A stretch of DNA of 18,696 nt from the NCBI GenBank assembly GCA_017518445.1, contig JAFWVB010000045.1, forward strand, positions 1 through 18,696. Direction: 5' to 3'. Of the stretch, positions 949-18,696 are shown one piece after another (position 1 is the stretch's first letter; the number at the start of each line of letters is the position of its first letter). A program made the translations under genes and the position numbers. The stretch comes from Oscillospiraceae bacterium. GTDB taxonomy: Bacteria > Bacillota > Clostridia > Oscillospirales > Oscillospiraceae. The notes beneath the pieces were generated by a model that worked only from the letters and a program-made list of their open reading frames with translations, made no database searches and had not been told where the DNA came from.

Positions 949-959
949 AGGAGGCAGGT

Positions 960-1445
960 ATGCTTAAAGGAATTCCACCGATCCTCTCTCCGGAACTGCT
1001 GTCGGTACTCGATGAAATGGGACACGGCGACCGTATATGCATAGGCGACGGCAACTTCCCCGGCGCGAGTTACGCGGCGGAGGGCGGCGCGAAGCTCATA
1101 CGGGCTGACGGCCACGGCGTCTGCGCGCTGCTGGACGCGATACTTCAGGTAATGCCGCTGGATGCGTATGTGGATACGCCGGCGATGATAATGGAGGTCG
1201 ACCCGAAGGACGCGGGGCTTCAGATCCCGATCTGGGACGAATTCAAAAAGATAATAGCAAGGCATGATGAGCGCGGCGCCGCCGCGGTAGGCAGCTATGA
1301 GAGATTTGCCTTTTACGGAGAGGCCAAAAGGAGCTACTGCGTACTCCAGACCGGTGAAACGGAGATATACGCGAATATAATTCTCCAAAAGGGCGTTGTA
1401 AAGGCGGAGCGTGACGATAAGGAAAAGGGGACAGTGTATGGGTGA
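960..1445 (+). CDS. fucU: L-fucose mutarotase (RbsD/FucU family)
   Basis: The N-terminus MLKGIPPILSPELLSVLDEMGHGD... and C-terminal ..RFAFYGEAK..QTGE..YANIILQKGV match the FucU/RbsD pattern. RBS AAAGGAGG at 947-954 lies 5 nt before the ATG. The gene sits immediately downstream of fucI. Confidence 0.85.
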   Translation: MLKGIPPILSPELLSVLDEMGHGDRICIGDGNFPGASYAAEGGAKLIRADGHGVCALLDAILQVMPLDAYVDTPAMIMEVDPKDAGLQIPIWDEFKKIIARHDERGAAAVGSYERFAFYGEAKRSYCVLQTGETEIYANIILQKGVVKAERDDKEKGTVYG

Positions 1446-3916: not shown

Positions 3917-4004
3917 AAAAGCGAGCGGGCATTACAGTGAATAAGTGTGGGATGAACCCCGCTTAGAATACATTTTCAAAATTTAATGAAAGGAATGGAA
4001 TTGT

Positions 4005-5162
4005 ATGAAGAAGTTTTTAGCGCTACTGTTGAGTCTTGTCCTCTTGGTTGCATGCTTTACCGCGTGCGCCCCGAAGCAGGAGGAAAAGACCGAGACGAAG
4101 ACCGAAACCGAGACCAAAACCGAGACCAAAACAGAGACCGAAACCAAGACAGATAATCCTCCCGCGGAAGAAAAAGTTTACATCCCGGTCATGGCAAAGG
4201 GCTTCCAGCACCAGTTCTGGCAGGCTGTCAAGGCGGGTTCCGACGCCGCTGCGGAAGAGCTTGGCATCGAGATCTACTTCGACGGTCCGGCTTCAGAGAC
4301 CGACATCGACGTGCAGGTCAACATGATCAAGCAGGAAATGGCGAAGAAACCGAAGGCAATGGCGCTTGCCGCCCTCTCCACGGACGCTGTCAAGGAGATC
4401 CTTGAGGAGTGCGCCGAGAAGAACATTCCGGTCATAGGTTTTGACTCCGGTGTTCCGGACGATACCTCCGGTGCTGTTAAGGCTACCGCCGCGACGAACA
4501 ACGAGGCAGCCGCAGCTCTTGCCGCCGAGAAATTCGGTGAAAACGCCGATATCGTCGCCGCAATGCAGGCTGCTACCTCGGATAACCCCGTCATCATCGC
4601 CTGCCTGTCTCAGGATGCGGTCTCCGCTTCCGTTACTGGCCGTACGACCGGCTTTGTCAACAAGATGAAGGAAATCGCAGAGACGTATCAGGCCGGCAAG
4701 GTCTCCGTTGAAGGCCACACCAAGTGGGAAGCAAAGGTCAGCGATCCGGCTATCATTATCCGCGTTGAGGTATCCGCAACGACTGAGGCTACCGCTGTTC
4801 AGACCTCCGCTAACACCCTGCTCAACCTCAAGGGGCTGAAGGCTGTGTTCTGCTCCAACGAGGGCACGGTCACCGGCTTCCTCGCCGCTGTTTCCGACGG
4901 TGAAGATCTCGCCGACGGCGGCAAGTACGCTGATCTGGTAGTCGCGGGCTTCGACGCAGGCTCCGCGCAGAAGAACGCTATCCGTCAGGGCTGGTTCTAC
5001 GGCTCCGTGACGCAGGATCCGTTCTCCATCGGCTACAACGCAGTCAAGATGGCATACGCCGCTTACAACGGTGAGAGCGTATCCGACGTCGACACCGGTG
5101 CGAAGTGGTACAATTCCGAGAACATCGACGACGCGGACATCGCGCTCCTCGTCTACGATTAA
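4005..5162 (+). CDS. sugar ABC substrate-binding lipoprotein (type I periplasmic-binding fold, RbsB-like)
   Basis: Signal peptide MKKFLALLLSLVLLVAC with lipobox L-V-A-C17 (a second candidate is F-T-A-C21). A low-complexity (E/K)T linker follows, then a PBP1-like body (IPVIGFDSG, VAGFDAG). It directly follows the permease. Confidence 0.85.
   Translation: MKKFLALLLSLVLLVACFTACAPKQEEKTETKTETETKTETKTETETKTDNPPAEEKVYIPVMAKGFQHQFWQAVKAGSDAAAEELGIEIYFDGPASETDIDVQVNMIKQEMAKKPKAMALAALSTDAVKEILEECAEKNIPVIGFDSGVPDDTSGAVKATAATNNEAAAALAAEKFGENADIVAAMQAATSDNPVIIACLSQDAVSASVTGRTTGFVNKMKEIAETYQAGKVSVEGHTKWEAKVSDPAIIIRVEVSATTEATAVQTSANTLLNLKGLKAVFCSNEGTVTGFLAAVSDGEDLADGGKYADLVVAGFDAGSAQKNAIRQGWFYGSVTQDPFSIGYNAVKMAYAAYNGESVSDVDTGAKWYNSENIDDADIALLVYD
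4083..4151 (+). repeat. in-frame 6-nt-period (GAR/AAR-ACN) tandem repeat encoding EKTETKTETETKTETKTETETKT linker
   Basis: Read directly: gaa aag acc gag acg aag acc gaa acc gag acc aaa acc gag acc aaa aca gag acc gaa acc aag aca. It sits immediately after the lipobox cysteine(s). Confidence 0.85.
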
Positions 5163-5203
5163 TAGGTGAGCGTTGATACGCGAGCCTGAAGAAACAAACG
5201 AAC

Positions 5204-5242
5204 GACCGGCGCCGCGGGCATGGCTTCCTTGCGGCGCCGGTC
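5204..5242 (+). promoter_or_regulatory. intercistronic GC-rich stem-loop after the binding-protein gene (no U-tract)
   Basis: Perfect 12-bp stem: gaccggcgccgc (5204-5215) pairs with gcggcgccggtc (5231-5242), with a 15-nt loop. It is followed by ctgccaaatg, which is not T-rich. It lies between the SBP stop (5162) and the kinase start. Confidence 0.6.
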
Positions 5243-5261
5243 CTGCCAAATGGGAATTAAA

Positions 5262-6737
5262 ATGGGAAAGAAAAGACATTTTATCGCCCTTGATCTCGGT
5301 GCGAGCAACGGGCGAGCGATCCTCGGATCTTTTGACGGGGAGCGCATAACCATGGAAGAACTGCACCGTTTTGAAAACCATTATCTTGAAATGAACGGCG
5401 TTTACTACTGGGATACGCCTTATCTATATGAGCAGTGCAAGCAGGGGCTTCTCGCTTTCGCAAAGCGCGGCGTCGGTGAACTGGATGCCTTCGGTATCGA
5501 CACATGGGGAGTTGACTACGGTCTGCTGGACAGAAACGGACAGCTCCTCGGACTGTCGCGCTCCTACCGGCTTGGTACGCAGGAGGACGTGGACGCTGTC
5601 AAGGCGATCGTGCCGGAGGAGGAGCTTTTTGCGCGCTGCGGAATTGATACGAATCTCGCCTTCAATACGCTTTATCAGCTCTATCGCCGCAAGCGAGAGG
5701 GCGACACGGCTCTCGAGGCGGCGGATAAGCTGCTCTTCACTCCGGATCTTTTGGGATATTTTCTCACCGGCGAGACCGGGACGGAGTATACGATGGCGAC
5801 GACCTCGCAGATATACTCGCCTACTGCAAGGGCTTGGGATATGGAGCTTTTGCGCAAGCTCGGACTTCCGGAACACATCTTTACAAATATAGATCCGAGT
5901 GCTACCGTGCGCGGCGCGCTTCGTCGTGCCGTGCAGGAGGAGACGGGCGTCGGCGACGCGCGCTTCGTCGCGGTCGGAAGCCATGATACGGCGTCCTCCG
6001 TCGCGGCTATCCCCGGACGCGGGAGCTTTGCCTTCTGCTCGTCTGGGACATGGTCGCTGATAGGGGTTGAGACGGAAAAGCCGGAGCTTTCCGATGAGGC
6101 GAGACGGCTCGGCTTCTCGAACGAGGGGACAGTACAGGGCGGCTTCCAGCCGCTTCGCAATATAAACGGACTATGGATAATCCAGGAATGCCGCCGCGAA
6201 TGGCGCAGAGACGGAAAAGCCCTCACCTGGGACGCGATAGTCAGCGAGGCGTCCTTTGTAAAGCCGCTGCGTTCGGTCATAGACACGGACGCCCCCGAAT
6301 TTTACGGCGGCGGAAACATGGTTGAAAAAATACGCGGCTATTGCGCCGCTTCCGGTCAGCCCGTACCCGATAGCGTCGGAGAGGTTGCGCGCTGCGTTTA
6401 TGAGTCGCTCGCCCTGAAATACCGCCTCGCGGTCGAGGGGCTTGAAAAGATCAAGGGAGAGCGCATAGACTCTCTCAACATAGTCGGCGGCGGCATACAA
6501 AACCGCCTTCTCAATCAGATGGCGGCGGACGCTCTCGACCGCGTCGTTGTGACCGGACCGACAGAGGGCGCGGCGATGGGAAATCTGCTTACACAGGCGC
6601 TCGCTCTCGGCGACATTGCAAACATCGGAGAACTGCGAGAGGTGGTGCGCGCCTCCGAGCACGTCGAGACATGGGAACCGAGGCACAGTGGAGCGTGGGA
6701 GGACGCATACGGCAGACTTCGCTCGCTTATCGGATAA
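5262..6737 (+). CDS. rhamnulokinase-family FGGY ketose kinase (RhaB-like; possibly acting as L-fuculokinase here)
   Basis: ALDLGASNGR, HRFEN, GIDTWGVDYGLLD, GSHDTASSVAA, SSGTWSLIG and NIVGGGIQNRLLNQMAADA are collinear with E. coli RhaB as I recall it. The track's ATG 5220 lies inside the loop of the 5204-5242 hairpin, so I prefer ATG 5262 (MGKKRHFIALDLG). ATG 5250 is an alternative. Confidence 0.8.
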   Translation: MGKKRHFIALDLGASNGRAILGSFDGERITMEELHRFENHYLEMNGVYYWDTPYLYEQCKQGLLAFAKRGVGELDAFGIDTWGVDYGLLDRNGQLLGLSRSYRLGTQEDVDAVKAIVPEEELFARCGIDTNLAFNTLYQLYRRKREGDTALEAADKLLFTPDLLGYFLTGETGTEYTMATTSQIYSPTARAWDMELLRKLGLPEHIFTNIDPSATVRGALRRAVQEETGVGDARFVAVGSHDTASSVAAIPGRGSFAFCSSGTWSLIGVETEKPELSDEARRLGFSNEGTVQGGFQPLRNINGLWIIQECRREWRRDGKALTWDAIVSEASFVKPLRSVIDTDAPEFYGGGNMVEKIRGYCAASGQPVPDSVGEVARCVYESLALKYRLAVEGLEKIKGERIDSLNIVGGGIQNRLLNQMAADALDRVVVTGPTEGAAMGNLLTQALALGDIANIGELREVVRASEHVETWEPRHSGAWEDAYGRLRSLIG

Positions 6738-6758
6738 CAGCGCGAAAGGAGAGAAGAG

Positions 6759-8336
6759 ATGGGCATTCGCACCGAGGACTGCGTGCTGGGTATAGAGCTC
6801 GGCTCAACGCGCATAAAGGCGACGCTTATAGACAATGAGCATCGACCCGTCGCAAACGGCAGTTTTGTCTGGGAAAACCGCCTTGAAAACGGCGTCTGGA
6901 CATATCGGCTTGAGGACGCCGTTGAGGGCGTTCGCGCCTGCTACGCGGAACTCAAGCGCGACGCTAAGGCGCGTCTCGGCGAGACGATAACAAGGCTCAA
7001 GGGTATAGGCGTATCGGGAATGATGCACGGCTATCTCGCTCTGGACGCAGATGGTAGACAGATTGCGCCGTTTCGGACATGGCGCAACACGATTACAGGA
7101 CAGGCGGCGGCGGAACTCACGGAGCGGTTTCGCTTCAACATACCGCAGCGGTGGAGCATTGCACATCTATATCAGTCAATTCTGAACGGAGAGGAGAGTG
7201 TGGGGTGTATCGCCCACCTCGTGACGCTCTCCGTGTATGTGCATCATCTGCTCACCGGTCGCTGGGCGGTCGGCGTCGGCGAGGCGTCCGGGATGTTCCC
7301 GTACGACGATGCTGCAAAGAATTTCGACGCGAAGCGGATAAAGCTTTTTGACGCGCTTATAGCTGATCGCGGCTTTTCTTGGAAGCTCGCGGATATTCTG
7401 CCGGAGGTACTTCCCGCCGGATCTGTCGCGGGCATTCTGACAAAAGAGGGCGCGGCGCTGCTGGATCCCGACGGAGACCTTCTCCCCGGAATTCCGTTCT
7501 GCCCGCCGGAGGGCGACGCGGCAACCGGAATGGTCGCCACCGGCGCGGTACAGCCGCGCACCGGCAGCGTGTCCGCCGGTACATCGGCGTTTTCGCTTCA
7601 GGTGCTCGAAAGACCGCTCAAAGGGTATTACACGAAAATAGACGTCGTCGCTACACCGACCGGCAGACCTGTCGCGATGGCGCACACGAACAACTGCACA
7701 GGCGAGATAGACGCATGGGCGCGCCTCTTCTCGGAGGTGAGCCGTCTGTGCGGCGGCGAGGACGACCTCGGAGAGCTGTTCCCGAAGCTCTACCGTATAG
7801 CGCTTGACGGCGCGGCTGACGCGGGAGGAATGGTCGCGTTCAATTATTCAGCCGGCGAGGTGCTGACCGATGTAAAGCATGGCAGACCGCTCTTTCTGCG
7901 GCTGCCGGACGCTGAATTTAATCTTGCGAGCTTCATGCGCGCGCAGCTTTACGGAGCGATAGCGACATGGAAGCTCGGCATAGATTTCCTGTATGAAAAT
8001 GAGCGGGTGGTTTCCGACCGTATGCTCGGTCACGGCGGGTTTTTCAAGACTCCCGGAGTGGGGGCGCAGATATTGGCGGACGCGCTGAATTTGCCGGTGT
8101 ACACCATGGAGACCGCCGGAGAGGGCGGACCTTGGGGCATGGCTCTGCTGGCGGCTTATATGTGCCGCGCAGAAGACGGAGAAAGCCTTGAGGACTATTT
8201 GGAAAAGCGCGTGTTTTCCGGGGCGAAGTCGGAGATGTTTCTTCCGAAAGCTGAAGGCGCCGCCGGATTTGCCGCGTATATGGAGCGTTACAAGGCGGCA
8301 CTGTCCGCGGAACGCGCATCAGGAGAGGTAGTATGA
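6759..8336 (+). CDS. FGGY-family carbohydrate kinase (xylulokinase-like, substrate unknown)
   Basis: GIELGSTRIK (phosphate-1 loop), GVSGMMHGYL, PEGDAATGMVATG, SAGTSAF and GHGGFFKTP. RBS AAAGGAGAG at 6746-6754 precedes the ATG at 6759. Confidence 0.75.
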   Translation: MGIRTEDCVLGIELGSTRIKATLIDNEHRPVANGSFVWENRLENGVWTYRLEDAVEGVRACYAELKRDAKARLGETITRLKGIGVSGMMHGYLALDADGRQIAPFRTWRNTITGQAAAELTERFRFNIPQRWSIAHLYQSILNGEESVGCIAHLVTLSVYVHHLLTGRWAVGVGEASGMFPYDDAAKNFDAKRIKLFDALIADRGFSWKLADILPEVLPAGSVAGILTKEGAALLDPDGDLLPGIPFCPPEGDAATGMVATGAVQPRTGSVSAGTSAFSLQVLERPLKGYYTKIDVVATPTGRPVAMAHTNNCTGEIDAWARLFSEVSRLCGGEDDLGELFPKLYRIALDGAADAGGMVAFNYSAGEVLTDVKHGRPLFLRLPDAEFNLASFMRAQLYGAIATWKLGIDFLYENERVVSDRMLGHGGFFKTPGVGAQILADALNLPVYTMETAGEGGPWGMALLAAYMCRAEDGESLEDYLEKRVFSGAKSEMFLPKAEGAAGFAAYMERYKAALSAERASGEVV

Positions 8337-9001
8337 AAAACAACGAAAAACGGAGCATACGAGAGTGGATCGTCCGTATTCTGCTTCTTTTTATCGGCGT
8401 GACGATCGCCCATTTCGGAGTGACGTTGTTTCTGCTGTCGGACATGGGCTCCGACCCTTTTAACGTGCTGGTGCAGGGGACTTACCGTGCGCTATCATCC
8501 GCGACGGGGCTCGGCTTTTTGACGCACGGGCGCGTGCATATCCTGCTCTGCGCCGTGATAATTGTTGTTCTTCTTTTTATCGACCGCAGCTACATAAAGC
8601 TCGGCACATTCATATGCATGGTGATTGGCGGACCTATAATCGACATATTTACAAAGATTTTGTCGCCGCTTTTTAACAGCGTGCCGCCTATTCCGGTCGC
8701 ACTTGCTCTCGTTGTGGCGGGATGCGTGATATTGGCGTTCGGCATGACTGTCGTTATAAATTCCGACGCGGGCACGGGACCCAACGACCTTGTTTCCGTC
8801 GCGCTTGCCGACAAGCTGAAAAAGAAATTCAGCATAATACGTATCATAACGGACGTCGCCTTTGTGCTCATAGGCCGGCTTCTCGGAGGTACGGTCGGCG
8901 TCGGCACGCTTGTTTGTATGTTCCTTGTCGGGCTTGTAGCCGGGGTGTTTCTACCTGTAAACAAAAAGCTGGTTGATTGCGCTGTCCGACGATTTTCATA
9001 A
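8333..9001 (+). CDS. YczE/YitT-like integral membrane protein of unknown function
   Basis: Multi-TM protein with an internally duplicated motif (MGSDPFNVLVQG and AGTGPNDLVSVAL), typical of YczE-like proteins. The ATG overlaps the kinase stop (ATGA at 8333-8336). RBS AGGAGAGG at 8321-8328. Confidence 0.6.
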   Translation: MKNNEKRSIREWIVRILLLFIGVTIAHFGVTLFLLSDMGSDPFNVLVQGTYRALSSATGLGFLTHGRVHILLCAVIIVVLLFIDRSYIKLGTFICMVIGGPIIDIFTKILSPLFNSVPPIPVALALVVAGCVILAFGMTVVINSDAGTGPNDLVSVALADKLKKKFSIIRIITDVAFVLIGRLLGGTVGVGTLVCMFLVGLVAGVFLPVNKKLVDCAVRRFS

Positions 9002-9047
9002 TATGCCATTGTTTGCGCGATACGCGCGGGGAAACGGGAGAATGCTT

Positions 9048-10049
9048 ATGCAAGATAAAAAGCTGTATGACGCTGTAGCTCTCGGGGAGCTGCTCGCGGA
9101 TCTGACCGAAGTGAAAACCGACGCCGACGGATACCCGACGCTCGAGTCGCATCCGGGCGGCGCGCCCGCGAATTATCTAGCGGCGCTGGCGAAGTTCGGG
9201 GCTGAAACGGCGATGATAGGAAAGGTTGGCGCAGACGCTTTCGGCAGGGCGCTGCGCGCAACGCTCGAAAAGGCGGGTGTCGACACGCGCGGCGTAATAG
9301 TCGATGAAAACGTTTTCACCACTTTGGCGTTTGTAACGCTTGATGAGGCGGGAAACCGCGAATTCTCATTTGCAAGAAAACCCGGAGCTGATACACGTCT
9401 TGCGGAAGAAGAACTGGACTTTGATATTATCGGCGCGTCGCGGGTATTTCATTTCGGAACGCTCTCGCTGACGGACGAACCGGCGAGAACGGCGACAAAA
9501 CGCGCCGTGGAATATGCGAAAGAGCGCGGCGTCACAGTCACATTTGACCCGAATTTGCGAAAACCGCTTTGGCGGGATTTGAATGAAGCAAAAAAACAGA
9601 TGCTCTGGGGGCTGTCGCAGGCGGATATCGTAAAGATAAGCGACGAGGAGATAGATTTTCTGTTTGGCTGTTCTCCGGAGGACGGAGCGGCGCGAATTAT
9701 CGACGATTTCGGCGCAAAGCTCGTCTTTGCGACCTGCGGGGAGAAGGGCTGTTATTACAAAAACAGAAACGCAAGCGGAAGCGTCACGGCGCTTTCCGGC
9801 GTGCGCGCTGTAGATACAACGGGAGCCGGCGACATCTTCGGCGGCAGCGCCGTATGGCGATGGCTTCAGACGGGAAAATCGGCGGAGGAACTGGACGGCG
9901 ACGAACTGCGGGAGATCGCGCTGTTTGCCGCCGCGGTCGCCGGACTTTCAACCGAAAAGCCCGGAGGCATATCGAGTGTGCCGTCGCTCAGCGAGGTGAC
10001 GGAGAAGCTGCGGGCGGCTTCCCAGACAGTGCACTTTGATAAATTTTAA
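9048..10049 (+). CDS. PfkB-family sugar kinase (fructokinase-like)
   Basis: PfkB signatures GGAPAN (N-terminal) and DTTGAGDIFGG (C-terminal), with an overall fructokinase-like layout. The track start is TTG 8973. I prefer ATG 9048 (MQDKKLYDAVALGELL), 8 nt after GGGAG. ATG 9042 is possible. Confidence 0.8.
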   Translation: MQDKKLYDAVALGELLADLTEVKTDADGYPTLESHPGGAPANYLAALAKFGAETAMIGKVGADAFGRALRATLEKAGVDTRGVIVDENVFTTLAFVTLDEAGNREFSFARKPGADTRLAEEELDFDIIGASRVFHFGTLSLTDEPARTATKRAVEYAKERGVTVTFDPNLRKPLWRDLNEAKKQMLWGLSQADIVKISDEEIDFLFGCSPEDGAARIIDDFGAKLVFATCGEKGCYYKNRNASGSVTALSGVRAVDTTGAGDIFGGSAVWRWLQTGKSAEELDGDELREIALFAAAVAGLSTEKPGGISSVPSLSEVTEKLRAASQTVHFDKF

Positions 10050-10068
10050 TGAAAATCAGGTATATGAC

Positions 10069-11055
10069 ATGATATTTTACAATTCGCCGAGCACAGATCC
10101 CTATTGGAATTTGGCGCTTGAGGAGTATGCCTTTGAAAGGTTTGACTCATCACAGCCCGTCTTTCTGCTGTGGCAAAACGACAATACGATAGTCGTCGGC
10201 GTTCATCAGAACACGGCGCAGGAGATAAACGCAGCCTATGTCAAAGAACACGGCGTCCGCGTCGTGCGCAGACTGACAGGAGGCGGCGCTGTTTACCACG
10301 ATCTCGGAAATCTGAACTATACGATAATCGCCGACAAGGACGAGCACGAGGCGTTTTGCTTCAACGTATTCGTAAGCCCGCTTATCCGCGCCCTTCGGAC
10401 TTTCGGAGTCAACGCTTCCTTCAGCGGCAGAAACGATCTTCTGATAGACGGCAAAAAAATATCAGGAAGCGCGCAGATGGTGCGCCGAGGGCGGATACTT
10501 CACCACGGCTGTATAATGCTGGACTCCGATTTGGAGGCGGTTTCCGAGGCGCTGTGCGTACGTGAGGCAAAGTATGACTCGCGCGGCATCCCATCGGTGC
10601 GAAGCCGAGTTACCACCGTAAACCGCGAGGCGTCCGCGCCGATATCGATAAACGATTTCCGTGCGGAGCTTACCGCTGCCGTGCGCGAGGGAGAGCCTAC
10701 GTTTGAGGAATATACTCCGACGCTTGAGGCGCTCGCCGAGATCGAAAAGCTGCGAAACGATAAATACGCCACATGGGAATGGAACTACGGCGAATCGCCG
10801 GATTACAATGTTGAAAAAGAGCGGCGCTTTGCAGGCGGTCTCGTAACGGCGCAGATGTCCGTTTCGGGAGGCAGAATACAGACAGTGCGATTTTTCGGAG
10901 ATTTTTTCGGAGAGGGCGATCTGCGCGAGCTTGAGGCGTCACTTGAGGGACTGCCTGTCGGCGGAGAAATCGGCGAGCGTCTTTCCGAGATAGGAGTGGA
11001 GCAGTATTTTCACGGCATAAGCGCGAAAGAGATAGCGAGCTTACTGACGGATTAA
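10069..11055 (+). CDS. lplA: lipoate-protein ligase A
   Basis: YWNLALEEY, RRLTGGGAVYHDLGNLNYT and DGKKISGSAQ (lipoyl-AMP lysine motif), plus a C-terminal accessory domain. The track start is TTG 10036. ATG 10069 (MIFYNSPSTDPYWNLA) gives the usual LplA N-terminus. Confidence 0.85.
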   Translation: MIFYNSPSTDPYWNLALEEYAFERFDSSQPVFLLWQNDNTIVVGVHQNTAQEINAAYVKEHGVRVVRRLTGGGAVYHDLGNLNYTIIADKDEHEAFCFNVFVSPLIRALRTFGVNASFSGRNDLLIDGKKISGSAQMVRRGRILHHGCIMLDSDLEAVSEALCVREAKYDSRGIPSVRSRVTTVNREASAPISINDFRAELTAAVREGEPTFEEYTPTLEALAEIEKLRNDKYATWEWNYGESPDYNVEKERRFAGGLVTAQMSVSGGRIQTVRFFGDFFGEGDLRELEASLEGLPVGGEIGERLSEIGVEQYFHGISAKEIASLLTD

Positions 11056-11074
11056 AATATGGGGGGCGCAAAAC

Positions 11075-11947
11075 ATGGATATGGAAAAGCTGCTTAAAAC
11101 AGCAAAAGAACGAATTCACGACAGATTGGACGGAGTCGGGAGGCTTTCCGGAAAGGTCGTCATCGTCACCGGCGCGGCGCAGGGCTTCGGGCGCGGTATT
11201 GCCGAGGAGCTTCACCGCGAGGGCGCGACGGTCATAATCGCGGATATGCAGTTTGCCGCCGCGAAGGAGGTCGCGGAAGGGCTTGGTGAACGCGCTGCGG
11301 CGATAAGGGTCGACGTGACCGACGAGGACAGCGTACGTGAGATGTACGCGGAGACGGTGGAGCGCTTCGGCGGCGTCGATCTTCTGGTCGCAAACGCGGG
11401 CGTCCTCCGCGCGGGCGCGCTTGCATCATATGAAAAAAAGGACATGGAATTCGTCACAAATGTGAACTATATCGGGACCTTCCTCTGCTGTAAATACGCG
11501 GCGGCGGTCATGCAGGCACAGCATGAGGCGGACCCGTCGGCGACCTTTGACATCGTGATAATGTCGTCAAAATCCGGACTTGAGGGCTCAAACAGGAATT
11601 TCGCTTATGCAGGCTCAAAATTCGGCGTTATCGGACTTGCGCAGAGCTTTGCGCTTGAGCTGTGCTCGAGCGGTATAAAGGTCAACGCCGTCTGCCCGGG
11701 TAATTATCTGGACGGTCCCCTTTGGAGCGATCCGGAAACGGGGCTTTTCGTACAGTATCTGCGCTCCGGCAAGGTTCCGGGCGCGAAGACGGTGGACGAT
11801 GTGCGCCGTCATTACGAGGCGAAGGTTCCGATGAACCGAGGATGTCTGCCGATCGACGTTGCCCGCGCGATTTTGTACTGCGTGGAGCAGAAGTACGAGA
11901 CGGGTCAGGCGATCCCCGTCACGGGCGGACAGGTGATGTTAAATTAA
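11075..11947 (+). CDS. SDR-family oxidoreductase resembling sorbitol-6-phosphate 2-dehydrogenase (SrlD-like)
   Basis: TGAAQGFGRG (TGxxxGxG), LVANAG and YAGSK (YxxxK). The C-terminal KVPMNRGC...ETGQAIPVTGGQVM closely parallels the E. coli SrlD C-terminus (KVPLKRGC...NVTGGQVMF) as I recall it. RBS GGGGGG at 11061-11066. Confidence 0.8.
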   Translation: MDMEKLLKTAKERIHDRLDGVGRLSGKVVIVTGAAQGFGRGIAEELHREGATVIIADMQFAAAKEVAEGLGERAAAIRVDVTDEDSVREMYAETVERFGGVDLLVANAGVLRAGALASYEKKDMEFVTNVNYIGTFLCCKYAAAVMQAQHEADPSATFDIVIMSSKSGLEGSNRNFAYAGSKFGVIGLAQSFALELCSSGIKVNAVCPGNYLDGPLWSDPETGLFVQYLRSGKVPGAKTVDDVRRHYEAKVPMNRGCLPIDVARAILYCVEQKYETGQAIPVTGGQVMLN

Positions 11948-11959
11948 GAGGCAAGCTAT

Positions 11960-13120
11960 ATGATAGAGCTTTCGATACTTGAAAAACTGAACGTGCCGGA
12001 GCGCGAGGCGCGCCTTGAAAATCTCCGCGCTATCACGGAGAAGGCTGCGTTTCCGACGCGCGATCCGCGCTATATCAACAACCATATACACACGACGTTC
12101 TCGTTCTCTCCGTATTCGCCGACGGCCGCTGTATACGCCGCGGCTGCGGAGGGACTGTGTACGGCGGGGATCGTCGACCACGACACGATGGCGGGCGCGC
12201 GGGAATTTCTGGAGGCGGCGAAGATACTTAAAATGCCCGTGACCGTAGGCATGGAGTGCCGAGTCTCCCTCGCGGGTACGCCGTTTGAAAACAGACGGCT
12301 CAACAATCCTGATCAGACGGGCGTTGCGTATGTGACCATTCAATCCGTGCCGCACGGCAGGATAGAGGATATGACGGAGTTTTTCGCGCCGTACCGTGCG
12401 CGAAGAGAGGCGCGAAACCGACGTGTGCTCTCGCGCCTTGCGGAGCTGCTTCCCGAATACACGCCGGATTATGACAGAGACGTGCTTCCGCTGACAATGC
12501 AGGCGGCGGGCGGCACGGTGACGGAGCGTCATATGCTGTTCGCGCTTGCCCGAAATATGACAGTTAAACTCGGACGCGGCGAAAAAATCGCGTCGGTTCT
12601 CGAGGGAAACGGGGTGGGGCTTTCCGAAAAGCAGAGAGAAAAGCTGCTCTCCGACAGCGGATTTTTCTATGAATACGACCTTTTGGGCATACTCAAAAGC
12701 GCGTTTCTGCCGCGCATTTATCTGCCTGCGACGGACGAGTGCCCGACGCTTGCCGCCGTGGTGGAAAAGTGCCGCGAGGTCGACGCATTTCTGTGTTACG
12801 CATATTTAGGCGATATTGCGGAGAGCGTCACCGGCGACAAGCGCGCCCAAAAGTTTGAGGACGATATACTTGAGGAGCTGTTTTCGTTCCTGAAGAAAAA
12901 CGGCGTCAACGCAGTAACCTATATGCCGACGCGAAACACCGAGACGCAGCTTCGGCGTCTGCGCTCGCTATGCGAGGAATATGGGATGCTCCAGATTTCC
13001 GGCGAGGATATAAACTCGCCTTCGCAGAGCTTCGTGATACGCGCGATGGAGGATCCGCAGTTTGCAAATCTCATCGACGCCACATGGGCGCTTATAGAAC
13101 ACGAAAACAAGGAGGTATAG
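11960..13120 (+). CDS. PHP-domain metal-dependent phosphoesterase with a long C-terminal extension, substrate unknown
   Basis: PHP motifs NNHIHTTFSFS (HxH), GIVDHDT and VGMECRV. The protein is 386 aa. RBS AAGAGG at 11946-11951. Confidence 0.7.
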   Translation: MIELSILEKLNVPEREARLENLRAITEKAAFPTRDPRYINNHIHTTFSFSPYSPTAAVYAAAAEGLCTAGIVDHDTMAGAREFLEAAKILKMPVTVGMECRVSLAGTPFENRRLNNPDQTGVAYVTIQSVPHGRIEDMTEFFAPYRARREARNRRVLSRLAELLPEYTPDYDRDVLPLTMQAAGGTVTERHMLFALARNMTVKLGRGEKIASVLEGNGVGLSEKQREKLLSDSGFFYEYDLLGILKSAFLPRIYLPATDECPTLAAVVEKCREVDAFLCYAYLGDIAESVTGDKRAQKFEDDILEELFSFLKKNGVNAVTYMPTRNTETQLRRLRSLCEEYGMLQISGEDINSPSQSFVIRAMEDPQFANLIDATWALIEHENKEV

Positions 13121-13126
13121 GTAGTT

Positions 13127-14386
13127 ATGAAAACGAAATGCGTAAGACTTCACGGCAAGATGGATCTCCGTCTTGAGGAGATCGAACTGCCGGAGATAGG
13201 GCCGGACGACGTGCAGGTAAAAATCGTCTCGGACAGTATATGTATGTCCTCGTACAAGGCGGCGGTCGAGGGCGAGGATCACAAGCGCGTGCCTGACGAC
13301 GTAGCTGAAAATCCGGTGATAATCGGGCACGAGTTTTGCGGCGACATAATCGCGGTAGGTGAGAATTGGAAGCACCGCTACAAGGTCGGAGACCGATTCT
13401 CGATCCAGCCCGCGCATTTTTACGAGGGCTCGCTGAAAGCGCCGGGCTACTCCTACGCATACTGCGGCGGCTCGTCACAGTACGCGAATATCCCGATAGA
13501 AACGCTCAAAATGGACTGCCTGCTGCCCTATGCCTCGGACACATATTTCTACGGCTCTCTGTCCGAGCCGATGAGCTGTATTGTCGGCACTTACCACGCC
13601 ATGTACCACACGAACGGCGGCAGCTATGAGCACGAGATGGGCATACGCGAGGGCGGAAAGATGGCTATGCTCGCCGCCGTCGGACCAATGGGGCTCGGCG
13701 CGATAGACTACGCGCTGCACAGTGACCGCCGCCCGTCGCTTCTGGTCGTCACGGACATAGACGACGCGCGGCTCGAGAGGGCAAAGACGCTCTACACCGT
13801 CGAAGATGCGGCAGAATGCGGCGTGAAGCTCGTATATGTGAACACGAGAATGGATAACGCGGCGGAGTATCTGCGGGATCTGACCGGAGGCACGGGCTAT
13901 GACGACGTGATATGCTTTGCTCCCGTGCGGCAGGTAGTCGAGCAGGCGGACGCAATCCTCGGTGAAAACGGATGTCTCAACTTCTTCGCCGGTCCGACCG
14001 ACACTCAGTTCAAGGCGGAATTCAACTGGTACAACGTGCATTACGCCGGAACCCACGTCGTCGGCACGTCCGGCGGAAACACGGATGATATGCGTGAGTC
14101 TATCGAGATGATGACGGGCGGAAGGCTGGATCCCGCTTCCATGGTCACGCATATCGGCGGGCTTGACGTCGTGGCGGAAACAGTGAAAAATCTGCCGAGC
14201 ATACCCGGCGGCAAAAAGCTGATCTACAACCACATATCCCTGCCTCTGACCGCGATCGTGGACTTTGAAGCCCTCGGGAAATCGGACCCCATGTTCGCGG
14301 AGCTTTATCGCATTTGCAGCAAACACAACGGGCTGTGGAACGCTGAGGCGGAAAAATATCTGCTCGCCGCCGCGCAGTCCATTTGA
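13127..14386 (+). CDS. zinc-type medium-chain dehydrogenase/reductase, long form (L-sorbose-1-phosphate reductase SorE-like)
   Basis: GroES-like N-terminus with SDSICMSSYK and the GHEFCGDII zinc motif. Rossmann region AAVGPMGLGAIDYAL. At 419 aa it is longer than classical ~350-aa MDRs. RBS AAGGAGG at 13109-13115. Confidence 0.7.
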   Translation: MKTKCVRLHGKMDLRLEEIELPEIGPDDVQVKIVSDSICMSSYKAAVEGEDHKRVPDDVAENPVIIGHEFCGDIIAVGENWKHRYKVGDRFSIQPAHFYEGSLKAPGYSYAYCGGSSQYANIPIETLKMDCLLPYASDTYFYGSLSEPMSCIVGTYHAMYHTNGGSYEHEMGIREGGKMAMLAAVGPMGLGAIDYALHSDRRPSLLVVTDIDDARLERAKTLYTVEDAAECGVKLVYVNTRMDNAAEYLRDLTGGTGYDDVICFAPVRQVVEQADAILGENGCLNFFAGPTDTQFKAEFNWYNVHYAGTHVVGTSGGNTDDMRESIEMMTGGRLDPASMVTHIGGLDVVAETVKNLPSIPGGKKLIYNHISLPLTAIVDFEALGKSDPMFAELYRICSKHNGLWNAEAEKYLLAAAQSI

Positions 14387-14490
14387 TAAAGCGTATGATT
14401 TGAAAGCTAAAGCTTTTTTCATTTTCTATTTTCAATCGGGCAATTTGCATTTTCCCTCCATGATGACAGGTGCAGCCTGCCATGAAAAAG

Positions 14491-14525
14491 CACAGCCCCC
14501 TCCGCCATGAGGGGGCTGTGTTTTA
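14491..14525 (+). terminator. rho-independent terminator closing the sugar operon (potentially bidirectional)
   Basis: The 11-bp stem cacagccccct (14491-14501) pairs with agggggctgtg (14510-14520) around an 8-nt loop. TTTT follows at 14521-14524. An A-run (14485-14489) precedes it. Confidence 0.85.
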
Positions 14526-14682: not shown

Positions 14683-14713
14683 TTGAACCCTCGGAAGTCA
14701 TTTATGCTACAAT
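14683..14713 (+). promoter_or_regulatory. putative sigma70/sigA promoter with extended -10 for the HTH gene
   Basis: TGcTACAAT (TG 14705-14706, -10 14708-14713). A possible -35 TTGAAC at 14683-14688 has a long 19-nt spacer. RBS AAAGGAG at 14721-14727. The TGCTACAAT block is conserved in the second copy at 17532-17540. Confidence 0.5.
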
Positions 14714-14734
14714 TCTCTCAAAGGAGTTGATGGT

Positions 14735-14968
14735 ATGAATCAAAAATACACCGAAAGCGAGAAATTAATCATTACGACTCGCTACAAAAAGGGAGAAGCC
14801 GTTTCCGATATTGTAATGAATACAGGCATTCCCCGCAGCACCATATACGCTTGGATCAAACATTCGGCAGACATGGATACCAACAAAAAATCTGTTTCTC
14901 TCAAGAATTACCGCATTCTGGAAAACAAGGTCGCACGCTTGCAAGGTATCATTGAAATCATGAAGTGA
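14735..14968 (+). CDS. small HTH protein resembling an IS3-family transposase OrfA (no OrfB follows)
   Basis: The 77-aa product has KYTESEKLIITTRYKKGEAVSDIVMNTGIPRSTIYAWIK (transposase-type HTH). A heptad-like LENKVARLQGIIEIMK tail resembles the OrfA leucine zipper. No DDE ORF follows on this strand. Confidence 0.65.
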   Translation: MNQKYTESEKLIITTRYKKGEAVSDIVMNTGIPRSTIYAWIKHSADMDTNKKSVSLKNYRILENKVARLQGIIEIMK

Positions 14969-15086
14969 AAAACCGCAGCCAATACCGTTATCGCCCCTTG
15001 TTTCGGCAACGCAGTTGTGAAACCATGCAGCAATTTTCTCTACGTTCGCCGCTGTCATATCCGGCGTTTCGAATTAAATTTTTCCA

Positions 15087-16052
15087 TTACTGCGCTCCTC
15101 CCATTTTTACAGAATAATTCTCATAATCAATATCTGCAATGGTCTCATTTATACACTGAAATACCGCAGCGTGTGCTTCCACAAGTGATTGCAGTTTTTC
15201 ATCAATATCGATTTCGACCGGTGATTTAAAATCTTTTATTCTATATTTCTCATCGGGTAATACGCGCGGAATTGATTGAAGACTACCTGCATTCCGATCC
15301 TCCTCAACTGGAACAAAATACATCGCAAAAGGTGCCTCCGCCTCCAAATATTTGTAATCGATTCCGCCTTTATGCTTGATATAGTGAGCCCATTTACGCA
15401 CTTCTTCAATTTTTGATGAACAAGTAGTTAGATGCTTGCGGCAGTCAGTTAGTCCCCTCGCTTTTAGCGCTCCAACAACAAATTCATATGTACAGTTCTC
15501 CATGATTTTCTTTGCATCCCATGTGTCATCATAAGGCTGAGCGTTTCGAGCAGTTGCAGAAGTATATAGCTTTTTAGCCCAATACACCGATTGAAGTACT
15601 TGATCAAAAGCATTTGAAAACCATGTTGTTGAAGTTCCAAAATAGATACAGCGGAACAAAAACTGCGGAACATACCCTTGGCTCCAATGAATATTGTAGT
15701 CGGTATCAAGAAGTAGTGAACTCTTCATAGTGAAGAACCTTGCAAATTGAAGACATTCTATAGCCTTTTTAGTAAAATATGCAGCGGCTCTTACTGAATC
15801 TTCCAATATAATATGCGGTTTTCTGAAGCTAACAAACTCCATTTTCTCGGAAAAGGCTGTGTATTTATCTTCGTAATCCTTATATGTAAGCTCTCTGCCC
15901 CTATAATTCAAAGTGCATGAATTCAAAAAGTCTTCTGTAACATCCGGATGATCCTTGATAAAACAATCTATGGTTTGAAACTCACCATCGGATAAGCGTA
16001 TTTTTAGGAACTGTTCACATTCAGGTTTGTTTGTTGCGGTTAATGTATACAT
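15087..16052 (-). CDS. hypothetical protein, 321 aa, no family recognisable by eye
   Basis: An uninterrupted 966-nt ORF in AT-rich, stop-codon-rich DNA is very unlikely by chance. A purine-rich GAGGAAGGAAA lies upstream of the ATG and a dedicated promoter lies upstream of that. Only a short, evidently spurious ORF is present on the opposite strand. Confidence 0.8.
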   Translation of the reverse strand: MYTLTATNKPECEQFLKIRLSDGEFQTIDCFIKDHPDVTEDFLNSCTLNYRGRELTYKDYEDKYTAFSEKMEFVSFRKPHIILEDSVRAAAYFTKKAIECLQFARFFTMKSSLLLDTDYNIHWSQGYVPQFLFRCIYFGTSTTWFSNAFDQVLQSVYWAKKLYTSATARNAQPYDDTWDAKKIMENCTYEFVVGALKARGLTDCRKHLTTCSSKIEEVRKWAHYIKHKGGIDYKYLEAEAPFAMYFVPVEEDRNAGSLQSIPRVLPDEKYRIKDFKSPVEIDIDEKLQSLVEAHAAVFQCINETIADIDYENYSVKMGGAQ

Positions 16053-16139
16053 AATGTATCCATTTCCTTCCTCAGACTTTTATAACCAATCTTCATTTGA
16101 ACACATCTCGTCGTTTGTGTGATAAAAAGGATCATATTT

Positions 16140-16168
16140 ATTATAACATATGATTTTATTTTACAAAC
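16140..16168 (-). promoter_or_regulatory. putative strong promoter (extended -10) driving the 321-aa gene
   Basis: The minus strand reads gTTTGTAAaataaaatcatatgtTATAAT. The consensus -10 TATAAT is the complement of 16140-16145. The TG of an extended -10 is the complement of 16147-16148. -35-like hexamers TTGTAA/TTTGTA/GTTTGT lie at 15-17-nt spacing. Confidence 0.55.
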
Positions 16169-16295: not shown

Positions 16296-17357
16296 CTAGC
16301 TTCTTTGCCCGTACACTTTTATATACCTCGATGCTTTTCCTGCGCCGATTCGCTGAATCGTACCGTCTTTTACCATGGCGCCCAGCACAGCCTCCACCGT
16401 CGTTGGGCTGACATCCGGCAGGATTTTGCAGATCTCCGCTTTTGAAATCGGCGTCAGGCTGTTTAAGACTGTTGCCTCGATGCACGCCCTCTTGGTAATC
16501 TTTTTCCCGTGGACGACGGCAAACCGTTTATCCAGCTCCTTATAGCACATATACAGGGTGGAGAGGAAGTTCTCAATAAATGGGAAGTAGCTGTTCTCAT
16601 TCGTATGCCAGCCATTTGAAGACTGCCGAAGGGATTCGTAATAAAACGCTTTATGGTTATTGATCTGTTCTTCGAAGGAAACATACTTCCCTACATCATA
16701 GCCGTTTTTATAGAGCAGCAGCAATGATAATAGTCTGGACATCCTTCCATTCCCGTCTCGGAAAGGGTGGATGCAAAGGAAATCTAAAATCACGCAGGGA
16801 ATCAGCAAAAGTTGATTGATATTAGCATCGCTACAGGCGTCCAAATAAGCGAGCTCCAACTGCTCCATGGCTGTCTCCGTCTCAGCTGACGGCGTTGGAG
16901 AAAATCGCACCTTTCGATTTCCCGCAGCATCCACTTCAAGGATCACTTTGTCATCAGTTTTATAACGGCCGCCGTACTCATATCCGGCAATGGAAAGCAG
17001 CATTTCATGCAGCCGTAGGATGTCGCGCTGGCGGAAATTGATGTGCTCATAGCCAAGATGAATCTCATTCAGTGCGTCTCTGTATCCGGCAATCTCCGCC
17101 TCATCGTGATTAAGCGGGGCGCTGTTCTGATTGACGATGGCAACGATACGTTCATCGCTGGTGACGATTCCCTCTATAGCGTTAGAGCTCTTGACAGATT
17201 GCACTTTTGCTATGGCTTCCAATTCCGTGAAGACACGGATATACTCTTCTTTTCGGATGCCAGCCATTGTCTTCAGGCTTGCGATACTTGCGGTAAGGTT
17301 TACCAGCTTTGCGGGTAACAGTCCATTATCTAAGAAAGAATAGTCAAATCTTCTCAT
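16296..17357 (-). CDS. Fic-family protein (class II, N-terminal inhibitory motif; C-terminal winged-HTH)
   Basis: Canonical Fic motif HPFRDGNGRMSR (complement of 16734-16769). Inhibitory [ST]xxxE[GN] motif SNAIEG (complement of 17169-17186). The C-terminal LTPISKAEICKILPDVSPTTVEAVLGAMVKDGTIQRIG looks like a wHTH. I prefer the ATG at 17357 (MRRFDYSFLDNG), 6 nt after GGAGGGA, over the track's ATG at 17387. Confidence 0.9.
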   Translation of the reverse strand: MRRFDYSFLDNGLLPAKLVNLTASIASLKTMAGIRKEEYIRVFTELEAIAKVQSVKSSNAIEGIVTSDERIVAIVNQNSAPLNHDEAEIAGYRDALNEIHLGYEHINFRQRDILRLHEMLLSIAGYEYGGRYKTDDKVILEVDAAGNRKVRFSPTPSAETETAMEQLELAYLDACSDANINQLLLIPCVILDFLCIHPFRDGNGRMSRLLSLLLLYKNGYDVGKYVSFEEQINNHKAFYYESLRQSSNGWHTNENSYFPFIENFLSTLYMCYKELDKRFAVVHGKKITKRACIEATVLNSLTPISKAEICKILPDVSPTTVEAVLGAMVKDGTIQRIGAGKASRYIKVYGQRS

Positions 17358-17561
17358 TGTGCGTCCCTCCAATCTGCACATAATCATAACATATTATATG
17401 CAGAAACGCAAGGAATAGAAGTGATAATCTGCATATTATTATCGGTTTATATATGTAGAAACAAATAATTGATAAACAGCATATTCGCGCGCTTCAAGTC
17501 TTTTTATGGCACAGCTACTTGTTTACGTTCATGCTACAATGCTCTCAAAGGGATTGATATT

Positions 17562-17752
17562 ATGAACAAACTCACTGAAAGCGGGAATCAATCATTGTGA
17601 CTTGCCATAAAAACGGAGAGTCCGTTTCCGACCTTTTAATAGAAATCGGCATCCATCGTCGCGCCAGCTATGCATGGACTAAAGAGGCGACGAACAGAGA
17701 TTTCCTTCAGTCACATGTGAACACCCTAATTTATCGCTTACGCTATTCTTAA
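17562..17752 (+). pseudogene. frameshifted paralogue of the 14735-14968 HTH gene
   Basis: ATG 17562 reads MNKLTESGNQSL* (stop 17598-17600). Shifting frame at ~17588 gives SIIVTCHKNGESVSDLLIEIGIHRRASYAWTKEATNRD..*(17750-17752), homologous to LIITTRYKKGEAVSDIVMNTGIPRSTIYAWIK. Relative to copy A there is a 1-nt deletion (gaaagcgg-gaat versus gaaagcgagaaat). The upstream 34 nt match copy A at 29/34 positions. Confidence 0.7.
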
Positions 17753-17919: not shown

Positions 17920-18696
17920 TTAAGACAAAAAAGGCTTTATCATCTCTATGCTCATATTATCTTTGGTTTCCGCTTTAAACCCTTCAATTATTCTTGTCAT
18001 TGTATCAGCGCTCCAGAAGATTTTTAGTTTTTCCTTTGTGCGGGTGATTGCAGTATAAAATATACCATGCGTAATTCTCTCTGAGTTGCTACTAGGGATT
18101 ACAACTTTGATTGAGCTATACTCTAAACCTTGCGCTTTATGAATTGAAACCGCGTATGCTAACTGAAACGGCACTATTGACTTTATTCGCTCATCATCTG
18201 AATCTTCTTCTGTATTGCTCTCATAGGTTTCAAAAACGCCAAAGCGAATACGAGTTTTGTTTTCCTCATGGGATACTATCTGTAAATCACTCCCCCTTAC
18301 ATCCAGTGAAGTCAATACAATGGGAATATCTACAGTAAAATAAATACTGTCATTGTTTTTTTCTATATCAACGATTAATCCCTTTAAGTTGTTATACAGC
18401 ATCGGAAACCGTCGGCTTTCATTAAACAGAACCGGATCCCCTATTTTGTACTTCCAATCTGACCAATAATAAGCTTTCGACGAAGGATTTGCATCTTGAA
18501 AATAATTGTTTATACAATTCAATCCAAATTTTCCATCATAGTTTAAGCATAGCACGACTTCATCATCATCCGTCCGTTCAAGTAGCTCTTTTCCAATGTT
18601 TTTTGAAAATGGGCCATCAATTATCAGCTTTTCTGTGATGAGCGGGCCTAAGTGTCGAACTTCTTCCCACAGATTAATAATATTTTCTTTTTGTGT
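17920..18696 (-). CDS. SF1 helicase, C-terminal part (RecD/TraA-like, UvrD_C_2-type); 5' end beyond the window
   Basis: AYAVSIHKAQGLEYSSIKVVI and FYTAITRTKEKLKIF are classic SF1 motifs V/VI. An SH3-like insert is present (KIGDPVLFNE...LKGLIVDIEK). My own translation shows the frame stays open from 18555 to 18696 (..TQKENIINLWEEVRHLGPLITEKLIIDGPFSKNIGKELLERTDDDEVVLCLNYDGK..). The track's GTG start is therefore internal. Confidence 0.8.
   Translation of the reverse strand, partial: TQKENIINLWEEVRHLGPLITEKLIIDGPFSKNIGKELLERTDDDEVVLCLNYDGKFGLNCINNYFQDANPSSKAYYWSDWKYKIGDPVLFNESRRFPMLYNNLKGLIVDIEKNNDSIYFTVDIPIVLTSLDVRGSDLQIVSHEENKTRIRFGVFETYESNTEEDSDDERIKSIVPFQLAYAVSIHKAQGLEYSSIKVVIPSSNSERITHGIFYTAITRTKEKLKIFWSADTMTRIIEGFKAETKDNMSIEMIKPFLS

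Follow-up and report, generated by a model that had tools for sequence, protein, structure and literature searches.

The X Gene and Its Surroundings

The window analyzed here is an entire contig of 18,696 nt (JAFWVB010000045.1) from an Oscillospiraceae metagenome-assembled genome, and our subject is a gene on its minus strand (15087..16052), whose 321-aa product we refer to as X. The family to which X belongs was found to reside in a restriction-modification operon, and the copy in the window is very probably a relic of a cargo gene of such an operon. The following features were recognized at the locus.

15087..16052, minus strand: X, an intact coding sequence of 966 nt (321 aa) with an ATG start, based on the open reading frame (ORF) list, family, conservation, and AlphaFold model
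14983..15087, minus strand: Mod pseudogene stub, the 5' end of a type III methyltransferase gene, based on tblastn, DNA alignment, and blastn limits
16053..16081, minus strand: leftover operon DNA upstream of X (~25-30 nt), equivalent to the 3' end of the DUF4391 gene in intact operons and containing GAGGAAGGA
16073-16065, minus strand: Shine-Dalgarno sequence GAGGAAGGA, 12 nt before the X ATG, read from the sequence
16150-16140, minus strand: extended -10 element TATGtTATAAT of the TRTG type, read from the sequence
16166-16161, minus strand: weak -35 element TTGTAA with a 15-nt spacer to the extended -10, read from the sequence
14700..14968, plus strand: left insertion sequence (IS) remnant, a 77-aa transposase orfA helix-turn-helix fragment (ORF 14735-14968), which cuts off the Mod stub
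17528..17752, plus strand: right IS remnant, a degenerate, frame-broken orfA copy in direct orientation relative to the left copy
16296-17387: Fic gene (PADLOC SoFic, E = 1e-32)
17920-18555: C-terminal fragment (211 aa) of a PDC-S53-type helicase (PADLOC PDC-S53, E = 5e-87)

The original prediction regarded X as a genuine 966-nt gene whose G+C content sets it apart from its neighbors, a Fic gene, a helicase gene, and IS debris, and these observations stood up well. The frame was present in the ORF list, its start codon agreed with that of the homologs (same start position and a shared M-x-[YF]-T-[LF]-T-A...PEC pattern), and the pairwise ratios of nonsynonymous to synonymous substitution rates (dN/dS) between the window X and its in-operon relatives were ~0.03-0.07, which indicated purifying selection; because dS was saturated, this ratio is a rough figure and insensitive to any relaxation of constraint after detachment. 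X is clearly a real gene under strong purifying selection. The G+C content was 38.3% in the X gene, compared with 47.6% in the Fic gene and 56.5% in bases 1-14400, and the segment 14500-18696 as a whole had 40.5%. A 16-bp hairpin, GC-rich and carrying T-runs on both strands, resembles a bidirectional terminator and lies at 14487-14524, exactly at the border between the metabolic gene block (56% G+C) and this island (40% G+C).

The neighboring genes were confirmed by the PADLOC matches and the IS repeats. The helicase fragment covers only the last fifth of the PDC-S53 model (positions 692-886 of 900), and, given an upstream stop codon and the contig end at 18696, the helicase gene is truncated or disrupted. 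The left IS remnant shares a 39-nt direct repeat with 17528-17566, and the two orfA copies are ~75% identical over ~230 nt, with the X-Fic segment between them. These paired orfA 5' regions thus bracket X and Fic in a manner that resembles the ends of a decayed composite element.

A Protein Family of Clostridia

The label "orphan," which had been attached to this gene, did not survive the database searches. A word-indexed search recovered 130 clusters at 90% identity (E≤1e-3), which were 40-80% identical to X and nearly all 310-335 aa long, and a profile run exhaustively against 1.84 billion representatives recovered 185 at 50% identity (E≤1e-3), including a distant branch of 250-290 aa that is devoid of the first ~45 residues. 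A database entry identical to the X protein is named hypothetical protein; none of the 130 clusters had a Pfam domain or an informative name, and nowhere among the 130 clusters and 185 representatives was an assignment in Pfam, PADLOC, or NCBIfam obtained. In the GTDB contigs (one genome per species), the family was present in 13 species, all of them Clostridia. The hosts belong to Oscillospiraceae, Lachnospiraceae, Christensenella, Ruminococcus, and Peptococcaceae, and include the isolates Angelakisella massiliensis and Syntrophomonas wolfei. X was not found by tblastn in plasmid and phage collections, and a scan of 2.9 million viral contigs gave one match, which lay in the same operon type as described below. 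Thus, X represents an uncharacterized protein family restricted to Clostridia.

The Home Operon of X

The genomic context of the family was determined from gene calls around six homologs on long contigs and from tblastn mapping of all fetched loci (denoted by L numbers). One gene order recurred, with all genes in the same orientation: (HTH_26)-SNF2 helicase-DUF4391-(optional genes)-X-Mod-(optional genes)-Res, in which the SNF2 helicase measures ~1075 aa and DUF4391 occurs once or twice. PADLOC assigned Mod to the type III methyltransferases (E = 6e-222) and Res to the type III restriction enzymes (E = 2e-286), and the best match of the SNF2 protein was the candidate model "HKD+Snf2." In 26 of the 30 loci with DNA downstream of X, Mod followed X immediately, and it did likewise in L035/L036, L097, and L123; this arrangement accounts for ~17 of 20 independent lineages. 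The searchable literature yielded no description of an SNF2-DUF4391 type III-like operon or of its cargo slot, with "DUF4391" appearing only in unrelated papers.

In intact operons, the X coding region overlaps both neighbors by 1-20 nt. Because of these overlaps at both ends, X lacks a separate promoter in such operons, and the overlapping stop and start codons imply translational coupling. Consequently, X in intact operons is cotranscribed with and translationally coupled to its neighbors. The family is nested co-directionally inside a restriction-modification operon, an arrangement of which the window copy retains the Mod stub only.

When other genes were present in the interval that contains X, they always lay upstream of X: L001-4 carry ThsA and ThsB, L005-7 a TIR protein, and L019/20 two unknown proteins. 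In A. massiliensis (L020, 7053-9967), the latter two are a 609-aa protein without a family and a 293-aa protein whose N-terminus matched the PADLOC Stk2 kinase model (E = 3e-12).

A Hypervariable Cargo Slot between DUF4391 and Mod

We surveyed the interval between DUF4391 and Mod in metagenome operons fetched with a DUF4391 protein alignment (L037-L116, the best 80 of at least 563). X occurred in only 2 of these 80 loci. In 65 operons both DUF4391 and Mod were present; the two genes abutted each other in 15 (42-86 nt apart), and an insert of 0.4-3.6 kb separated them in the remaining 50. The insert ORFs fell into ~25 mutually unrelated clusters, the commonest being Schlafen/AlbA_2 (nine loci), a 720-aa AAA_13/SMC-like ATPase (five), DUF6680 (four), and GHKL (HATPase_c, two), with TIR also present; several common clusters (601, 378, 210, 294, 241, and 407 aa) had no Pfam match. 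Since the junction is either empty or filled by unrelated genes, it is a hypervariable slot of which X is one occupant. These results indicated that X is optional cargo and not a core subunit of the SNF2-DUF4391 type III-like system.

Could X nevertheless be an accessory subunit or regulator of Mod or of the restriction complex, acting for example on methylation, assembly, or expression timing, rather than a toxin? The X-Mod junction was never interrupted, other cargo being placed upstream of X (ThsAB-X-Mod, TIR-X-Mod, and 609aa-293aa-X-Mod), the X and Mod stop and start codons overlap in a way that implies translational coupling, and intact X survives without Mod and Res in several genomes, as a harmless protein would. 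However, X was missing from 78 of 80 operons closely related to its own, in which the 5' end of Mod still resembled that of X-adjacent Mod genes; thus, Mod does not need X. Moreover, X was also found outside restriction loci beside TIR/Tmn genes, distant relatives lie beside AbiH or a KAP NTPase, and the invariant polar pattern of X resembles an active site more than an interface. We therefore consider an accessory role improbable.

A second variable position was observed between Mod and Res, which was occupied by RES, by a HEPN-like protein of 190-207 aa (with or without RES), or by DUF1016/YhcG (PADLOC PDC-S02); it was seen in L001 (11028-12996), L005 (10944-12086), L011 (8852-10314), and L019/L020 (~12900-13550). 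The two junctions thus mix known defense modules with many unknowns, which suggests a guilt-by-position rule for new defense genes, and the unnamed slot clusters form a ready list of candidates. The slot may in this respect matter more than X itself.

X also adjoined TIR genes in three separate lineages, namely as ThsA+ThsB-X (L001-L004), as TIR-X (L005-L007), and as X-TIR followed by a Tmn/YobI NTPase gene (L026-L027), the last of these lying outside any restriction operon. Compared with these three X lineages, TIR cargo was observed in only 2 of the 65 generic operons. This adjacency may reflect a functional link, or may be coincidental given the small numbers.

The Window Copy as a Relic of the Operon

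DNA similarity between the window and intact operons, as determined by blastn, was limited to 14983-16081 (~1.1 kb). At the downstream side, the ATG of the Mod stub overlaps the X stop codon (TAATG), as between the genes of an intact operon; a 1-nt deletion after codon 2 then shifts the frame, and the homology is gone by approximately codon 35 in an alignment with four intact operons. The stub was recognizable against intact Mod N-termini by tblastn (E = 4e-6 and 4e-7). At the upstream side, homology to L035, L011, and L014 stopped at 16074-16081, and no DUF4391 remnants were found upstream of X in the window. The nearest homolog with context (80% identity) occupies an intact DUF4391-X-Mod arrangement. 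Because of this bounded block, its Mod stub, and the IS remnants, we concluded that the window X is a stranded relic and that it became an "orphan with its own promoter" only secondarily. An IS-associated rearrangement broke the operon in the window and left a 1.1-kb block with X and a frameshifted 35-codon Mod stub; this block now lies beside the Fic gene, with an extended -10 promoter captured on its upstream side.

The promoter had been described originally as strong, near-consensus, and a property of the gene. An extended -10 element is indeed present; however, its -35 element is weak, a generic -35/-10 consensus scanner made no call at this site, with a regional match count equal to the shuffled expectation, and the element is situated outside the conserved block. 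Because the scanner gave nothing above chance there, the promoter consists of the extended -10 only. It sits ~60 nt past the upstream homology breakpoint, in DNA without operon homology, and therefore belongs to the newly joined DNA. The promoter-like element at 16140..16166 is thus a captured one, secondary to the normal state of the X family, in which overlap with the neighboring genes leaves X without a promoter.

Similar wrecks were found elsewhere. In the locus of a 69%-identical homolog (L014), which also carries a stranded X in a wrecked operon, the order is HicAB, X, a Mod gene cut at residue 132 and a C-terminal scrap of Res (9966-10753), a transposase fragment, and Fic. The Fic protein of L014 (11841-13049) is 84% identical to that of the window, and the gene order differs between the two. 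Fic genes recur near X, a Fic-VbhA pair being located just past Res in L011-13 (L011, 13538-14424). In the 360-aa protein P0120, the first half of X is fused to a Res-type RE_endonuc domain (PF19778, E = 3e-34), and, as in L014, this points to large internal deletions of the operon, which seem to be recurrent. L025 (6094-9325) has lost Mod and Res, and its SNF2 gene is broken into two frames that overlap; DUF4391 and X are intact, and X is followed by a chloride-channel gene.

Conserved Residues and Predicted Fold

The AlphaFold model of X was of high confidence (predicted local distance difference test [pLDDT], 90.4; predicted template modeling score [pTM], 0.86). It consists of a small N-terminal alpha/beta domain (residues ~1-70) followed by a long helical bundle with helices at 85-112, 128-159, 189-227, and 283-308; the stretch between the last two (residues 228-282) is a loop that includes short strands. 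The model of a distant relative (pLDDT, 92.5; pTM, 0.91) showed the same plan. Foldseek searches with the X model against PDB and BFVD, and with the distant relative's model against PDB, gave nothing with E<0.3; the best E values were 0.6 and 0.3 in PDB (template modeling score [TM] <0.3) and 0.3 in BFVD, with Csm6 appearing only within the noise. Single-sequence scans of X against Pfam, PADLOC, and NCBIfam gave no match, and searches of PDB sequences with the X protein and two profiles gave chance matches only. A single weak match was obtained in PHROGs (phrog_8205, E = 0.0065, residues 30-70), the function of which is not known.

The conserved polar residues of X are R105, R134, D150, Q154, C187, N223 (His in the window copy), K226, H227, D282, D284, and H294. 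In the distant branch, conservation reached 100% for K226 and H227, 98% for Q154, 95% for D150 and N223, 93% for C187, 86% for H294, 81% for R105, and 76% for R134; D150, Q154, K226, and H227 were conserved at 95-100% in close relatives as well as distant ones. Within the short subfamily, the Asp, Lys, and His alone were invariant, with the Gln, Cys, and Asn at 90% or more. Each long helix of the model contributes at least one conserved residue, which looks like an active or binding site at the center of the bundle. The putative catalytic or ligand-binding center would most likely comprise D150 and Q154 (helix 128-159), N223, K226, and H227 (end of helix 216-227), and H294 (helix 283-308).

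This pattern bears directly on the original proposal that X is a PD-(D/E)xK nuclease with P266-D267...D284-E285-K286 as its core. All five residues are present in the window protein as described, D284 is invariant among close relatives, and genuine PD-(D/E)xK genes (DUF1016/YhcG) occur as cargo in the same operons. However, the PD-x16-DEK pattern did not carry the significance that had been given to it. In an alignment of 50 sequences, P266 and D267 were conserved at only 54% and 64%, both within a gapped, variable, low-confidence linker, and E285 and K286 at 68% and 72%, with K286 replaced by E, Q, N, or D elsewhere. D282 and D284, which are invariant in close relatives, were retained at only 55-60% among the distant sequences, and the short subfamily lacks them. 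The pattern PD.{10,30}[DE].K was matched in 13.5% of shuffled X sequences, and its form without P in 95%. Neither of the two confident models contained the alpha-beta-beta-beta-alpha-beta core or a mixed sheet, short beta bridges being all that was present, and the supposed C-terminal beta/alpha segment resolved into the mostly loop-like 228-282 region followed by one long helix (283-308). No nuclease match was obtained in Pfam, PADLOC, NCBIfam, PDB sequence, or Foldseek searches. Thus, X is not a PD-(D/E)xK nuclease, and we regard the chance that it is one as negligible. Nucleotidyltransferase (G[SG]...DxD) and HD-domain readings of the KHKGG...DID segment were also considered and dropped, because their spacing and the all-alpha fold did not fit and the DxD is not conserved across the superfamily.

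Condition of the Window Copy

Of 69 highly conserved columns, only 2 differ from the consensus in the window X, a number not unusual for this family. One of the two counts against an intact effector in the window: codon 223 (CAC, 15386-15384) specifies His, at a position that is Asn in 49 of 50 close relatives and in 95% of distant ones, so that N223H is the sole such case among the 50. Because it affects a position that is 95-98% Asn, the window copy may be impaired.

It is possible, although we doubt it, that the window copy is an inert, decaying remnant and its promoter a chance match in AT-rich DNA, which would be compatible with any reading of the family as a whole. In keeping with this, its operon partners are gone, the adjoining Mod stub has a frameshift and is cut short, N223H is accompanied by D168A in a column conserved at 92%, the window branch is ~1.5-2 times longer in dN than those of its two nearest relatives, and promoter-like matches in the region did not exceed the shuffled expectation. 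Yet the 966-nt frame is fully intact, with a number of departures at conserved columns that is typical of the family, and TRTGnTATAAT is a strong Firmicutes-type promoter match, well placed ~90 nt upstream and accompanied by a Shine-Dalgarno sequence. Furthermore, intact X has independently survived operon loss in at least four other lineages, which argues for a stand-alone utility of the protein. The significance of the window copy itself is modest, being that of a stranded relic of uncertain activity.

A Possible Relationship to HEPN Domains

The only named families reached by consensus sequences of the X family are of the HEPN type, and no match passed the threshold. With the distant-branch consensus, Pfam HEPN_Cthe2314 was matched at E = 2.3e-4 over model positions 16-174 of 174 (21.7 bits, below the cutoff of 27.1), and DUF4145 at E = 0.018, precisely over the R.WAN..KH block. 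The pooled consensus matched HEPN_Cthe2314 with E = 0.0034, and its sole match in PADLOC was CARF_HEPN (E = 0.0046). According to the survey of the HEPN superfamily, the Rx4-6H motif lies where helix 3 ends and the loop toward helix 4 begins, helix 2 carries a conserved acidic residue, and long inserts are tolerated (PMC3710099). The placement in the X models is analogous, with the motif at a helix end before a long loop and the last helix, and with D150 (95-100% conserved), together with Q154 (98-100%), on the preceding long helix 128-159; a helix-by-helix match to HEPN is putative. X resembles the HEPN families PF18730 (HEPN_Cthe2314), DUF4145, and CARF_HEPN in its all-alpha core with long inserts, in its conserved His at a helix end before the loop to the last helix, in a conserved acidic residue of the preceding long helix that may correspond to the one in HEPN, and in a subthreshold profile match that covers nearly the whole of PF18730; HEPN genes are, like X, often embedded in restriction operons.

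Several results weigh against this relationship. All HEPN matches remained below the curated threshold (21.7 vs. 27.1 bits), and in a per-member vote only 2 of 42 members matched a Pfam HEPN family. The spacing in X is R219-x7-H227 instead of Rx4-6H, its invariant part being N223-x2-K226-H227, so that the invariant K-H is preceded by N-x-x; R219 is conserved at 100% in close relatives but retained in only 60% of distant ones, and the short subfamily frequently has S, K, A, or N in its place. Neither AlphaFold model matched any HEPN structure (best PDB E values 0.3-0.6, TM<0.3), an hhalign comparison of X with the HEPN-like proteins whose genes adjoin RES in the X operons yielded a 0.1% probability, and a deep profile search with the short subfamily gave 26 matches, none with a Pfam domain or name. 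X is also considerably longer (250-330 aa) than a typical HEPN domain (~100-120 aa). Because of the Rx7H spacing, the nonconserved Arg, the 2 of 42 votes, the hhalign result, and the lack of an annotated bridge, we did not file X as a member of HEPN. A divergent HEPN-like, metal-independent RNase is the most specific mechanistic guess that we can offer, and it is a tentative one.

The same observations can be read differently, with X as a defense effector or sensor of a new fold and non-HEPN chemistry: either a metal-dependent hydrolase using D150, H227, and H294 (plus D282 and D284 in the long branch), or a helical ligand-binding module that senses, for example, a TIR-made nucleotide. The absence of a significant fold match in PDB and BFVD despite pLDDT >90, the nonconserved canonical HEPN arginine, the cluster of conserved Asp, His, Lys, Gln, and Asn residues, which is compatible with metal or nucleotide binding, and the three lineages with adjacent TIR genes would all suit this explanation. 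It is rather unlikely, in our estimate, given that a TIR gene is absent at most X loci, that the DxD is not conserved across the superfamily, that Pfam and PADLOC scans detected no SLOG, SAVED, CARF, or Macro sensor domain in X, and that the consensus sequences never reached a named family other than HEPN-type ones, and those only below threshold.

X as a Candidate Second-Line Defense Effector

Whatever its chemistry, X is probably a defense effector. The general idea of the original prediction, a candidate undescribed effector in a defense or mobile neighborhood, holds, in that X shares its restriction-operon slot with TIR, Thoeris, Schlafen-like, and ATPase genes and that its homologs were found in defense contexts (the restriction operon, AbiH, and KAP NTPase) when the conservation of gene neighborhoods was analyzed. 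One distant relative lies 11 nt downstream of an AbiH gene and another next to KAP_NTPase and DUF3800 genes, and a close relative lies beside a TIR gene and a Tmn/YobI-type NTPase gene, outside any restriction operon. PrrC in EcoprrI acts as an "RM guardian," which fires when restriction is inhibited (PMC12707154). By analogy with PrrC and with the co-occupants of the slot, X would most likely be a second-line defense effector that backs up the restriction system.

One distant relative, which adjoins a peptidase gene with no defense context nearby, speaks against such a role. Contrary to a toxin strictly restrained by Mod and Res, intact X persists after their loss in the window, L014/15, L025, and L031, and is found outside the operon in L026/27; because intact X outlives Mod and Res, a toxic X would need an activating signal and not mere release from Mod. 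Considering all of the evidence, we give an even chance to the overall explanation, in which the window X is stranded restriction-operon cargo and the family a second-line defense effector. A more far-reaching version, which we put forward as speculative and on balance doubtful, is that X founds a new structural class of helical-bundle defense effectors with a D/Q...N-x-x-K-H...H center and without a structural relative among solved or predicted viral structures, which back up an undescribed SNF2-DUF4391 type III-like restriction system. If so, the slot would be a natural catalogue of ~25 or more interchangeable defense genes, most of them without known domains, and a handle for discovery in gut and rumen Clostridia, the setting of X, in which few defense systems have been tested. 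If X works as an effector, it would represent a new family without a recognizable fold relative among the genes that back up restriction systems. Because the family is uncharacterized and structurally unmatched, X is a fair candidate for experimental work, for which a copy from an intact operon is preferable to the relic.

Comparison with Known Systems

With PD-(D/E)xK nucleases, X has in common only a short D...DEK string; fold, conservation, and profiles all differ. A closer parallel is offered by PrrC and RloC of type I restriction loci, which, like X, are accessory genes nested co-directionally in a restriction-modification operon beside the modification component, and with which X would share the concept of a second-line, abortive-type effector (PMC12707154, PMC3710099). 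PrrC and RloC are of the ABC-ATPase type, and AAA_13 ABC-type ATPases fill the slot of X in sister operons. In contrast, X has no ABC-ATPase, AAA, or P-loop domain and no detectable homology to PrrC; the host system of PrrC is type Ic, whereas that of X is type III with SNF2 and DUF4391, and intact X persists where Mod and Res are gone.

The slot itself resembles variable defense hotspots, in which conserved flanks (here DUF4391/Mod and Mod/Res) surround interchangeable, unrelated cargo. As in such hotspots, the cargo of the X operons includes Thoeris ThsA/ThsB, TIR, RES, DUF1016 (PDC-S02), and Schlafen-like genes. Unlike other defense hotspots, however, the X slot is situated inside a single co-directional, translationally coupled SNF2-DUF4391 type III-like operon.

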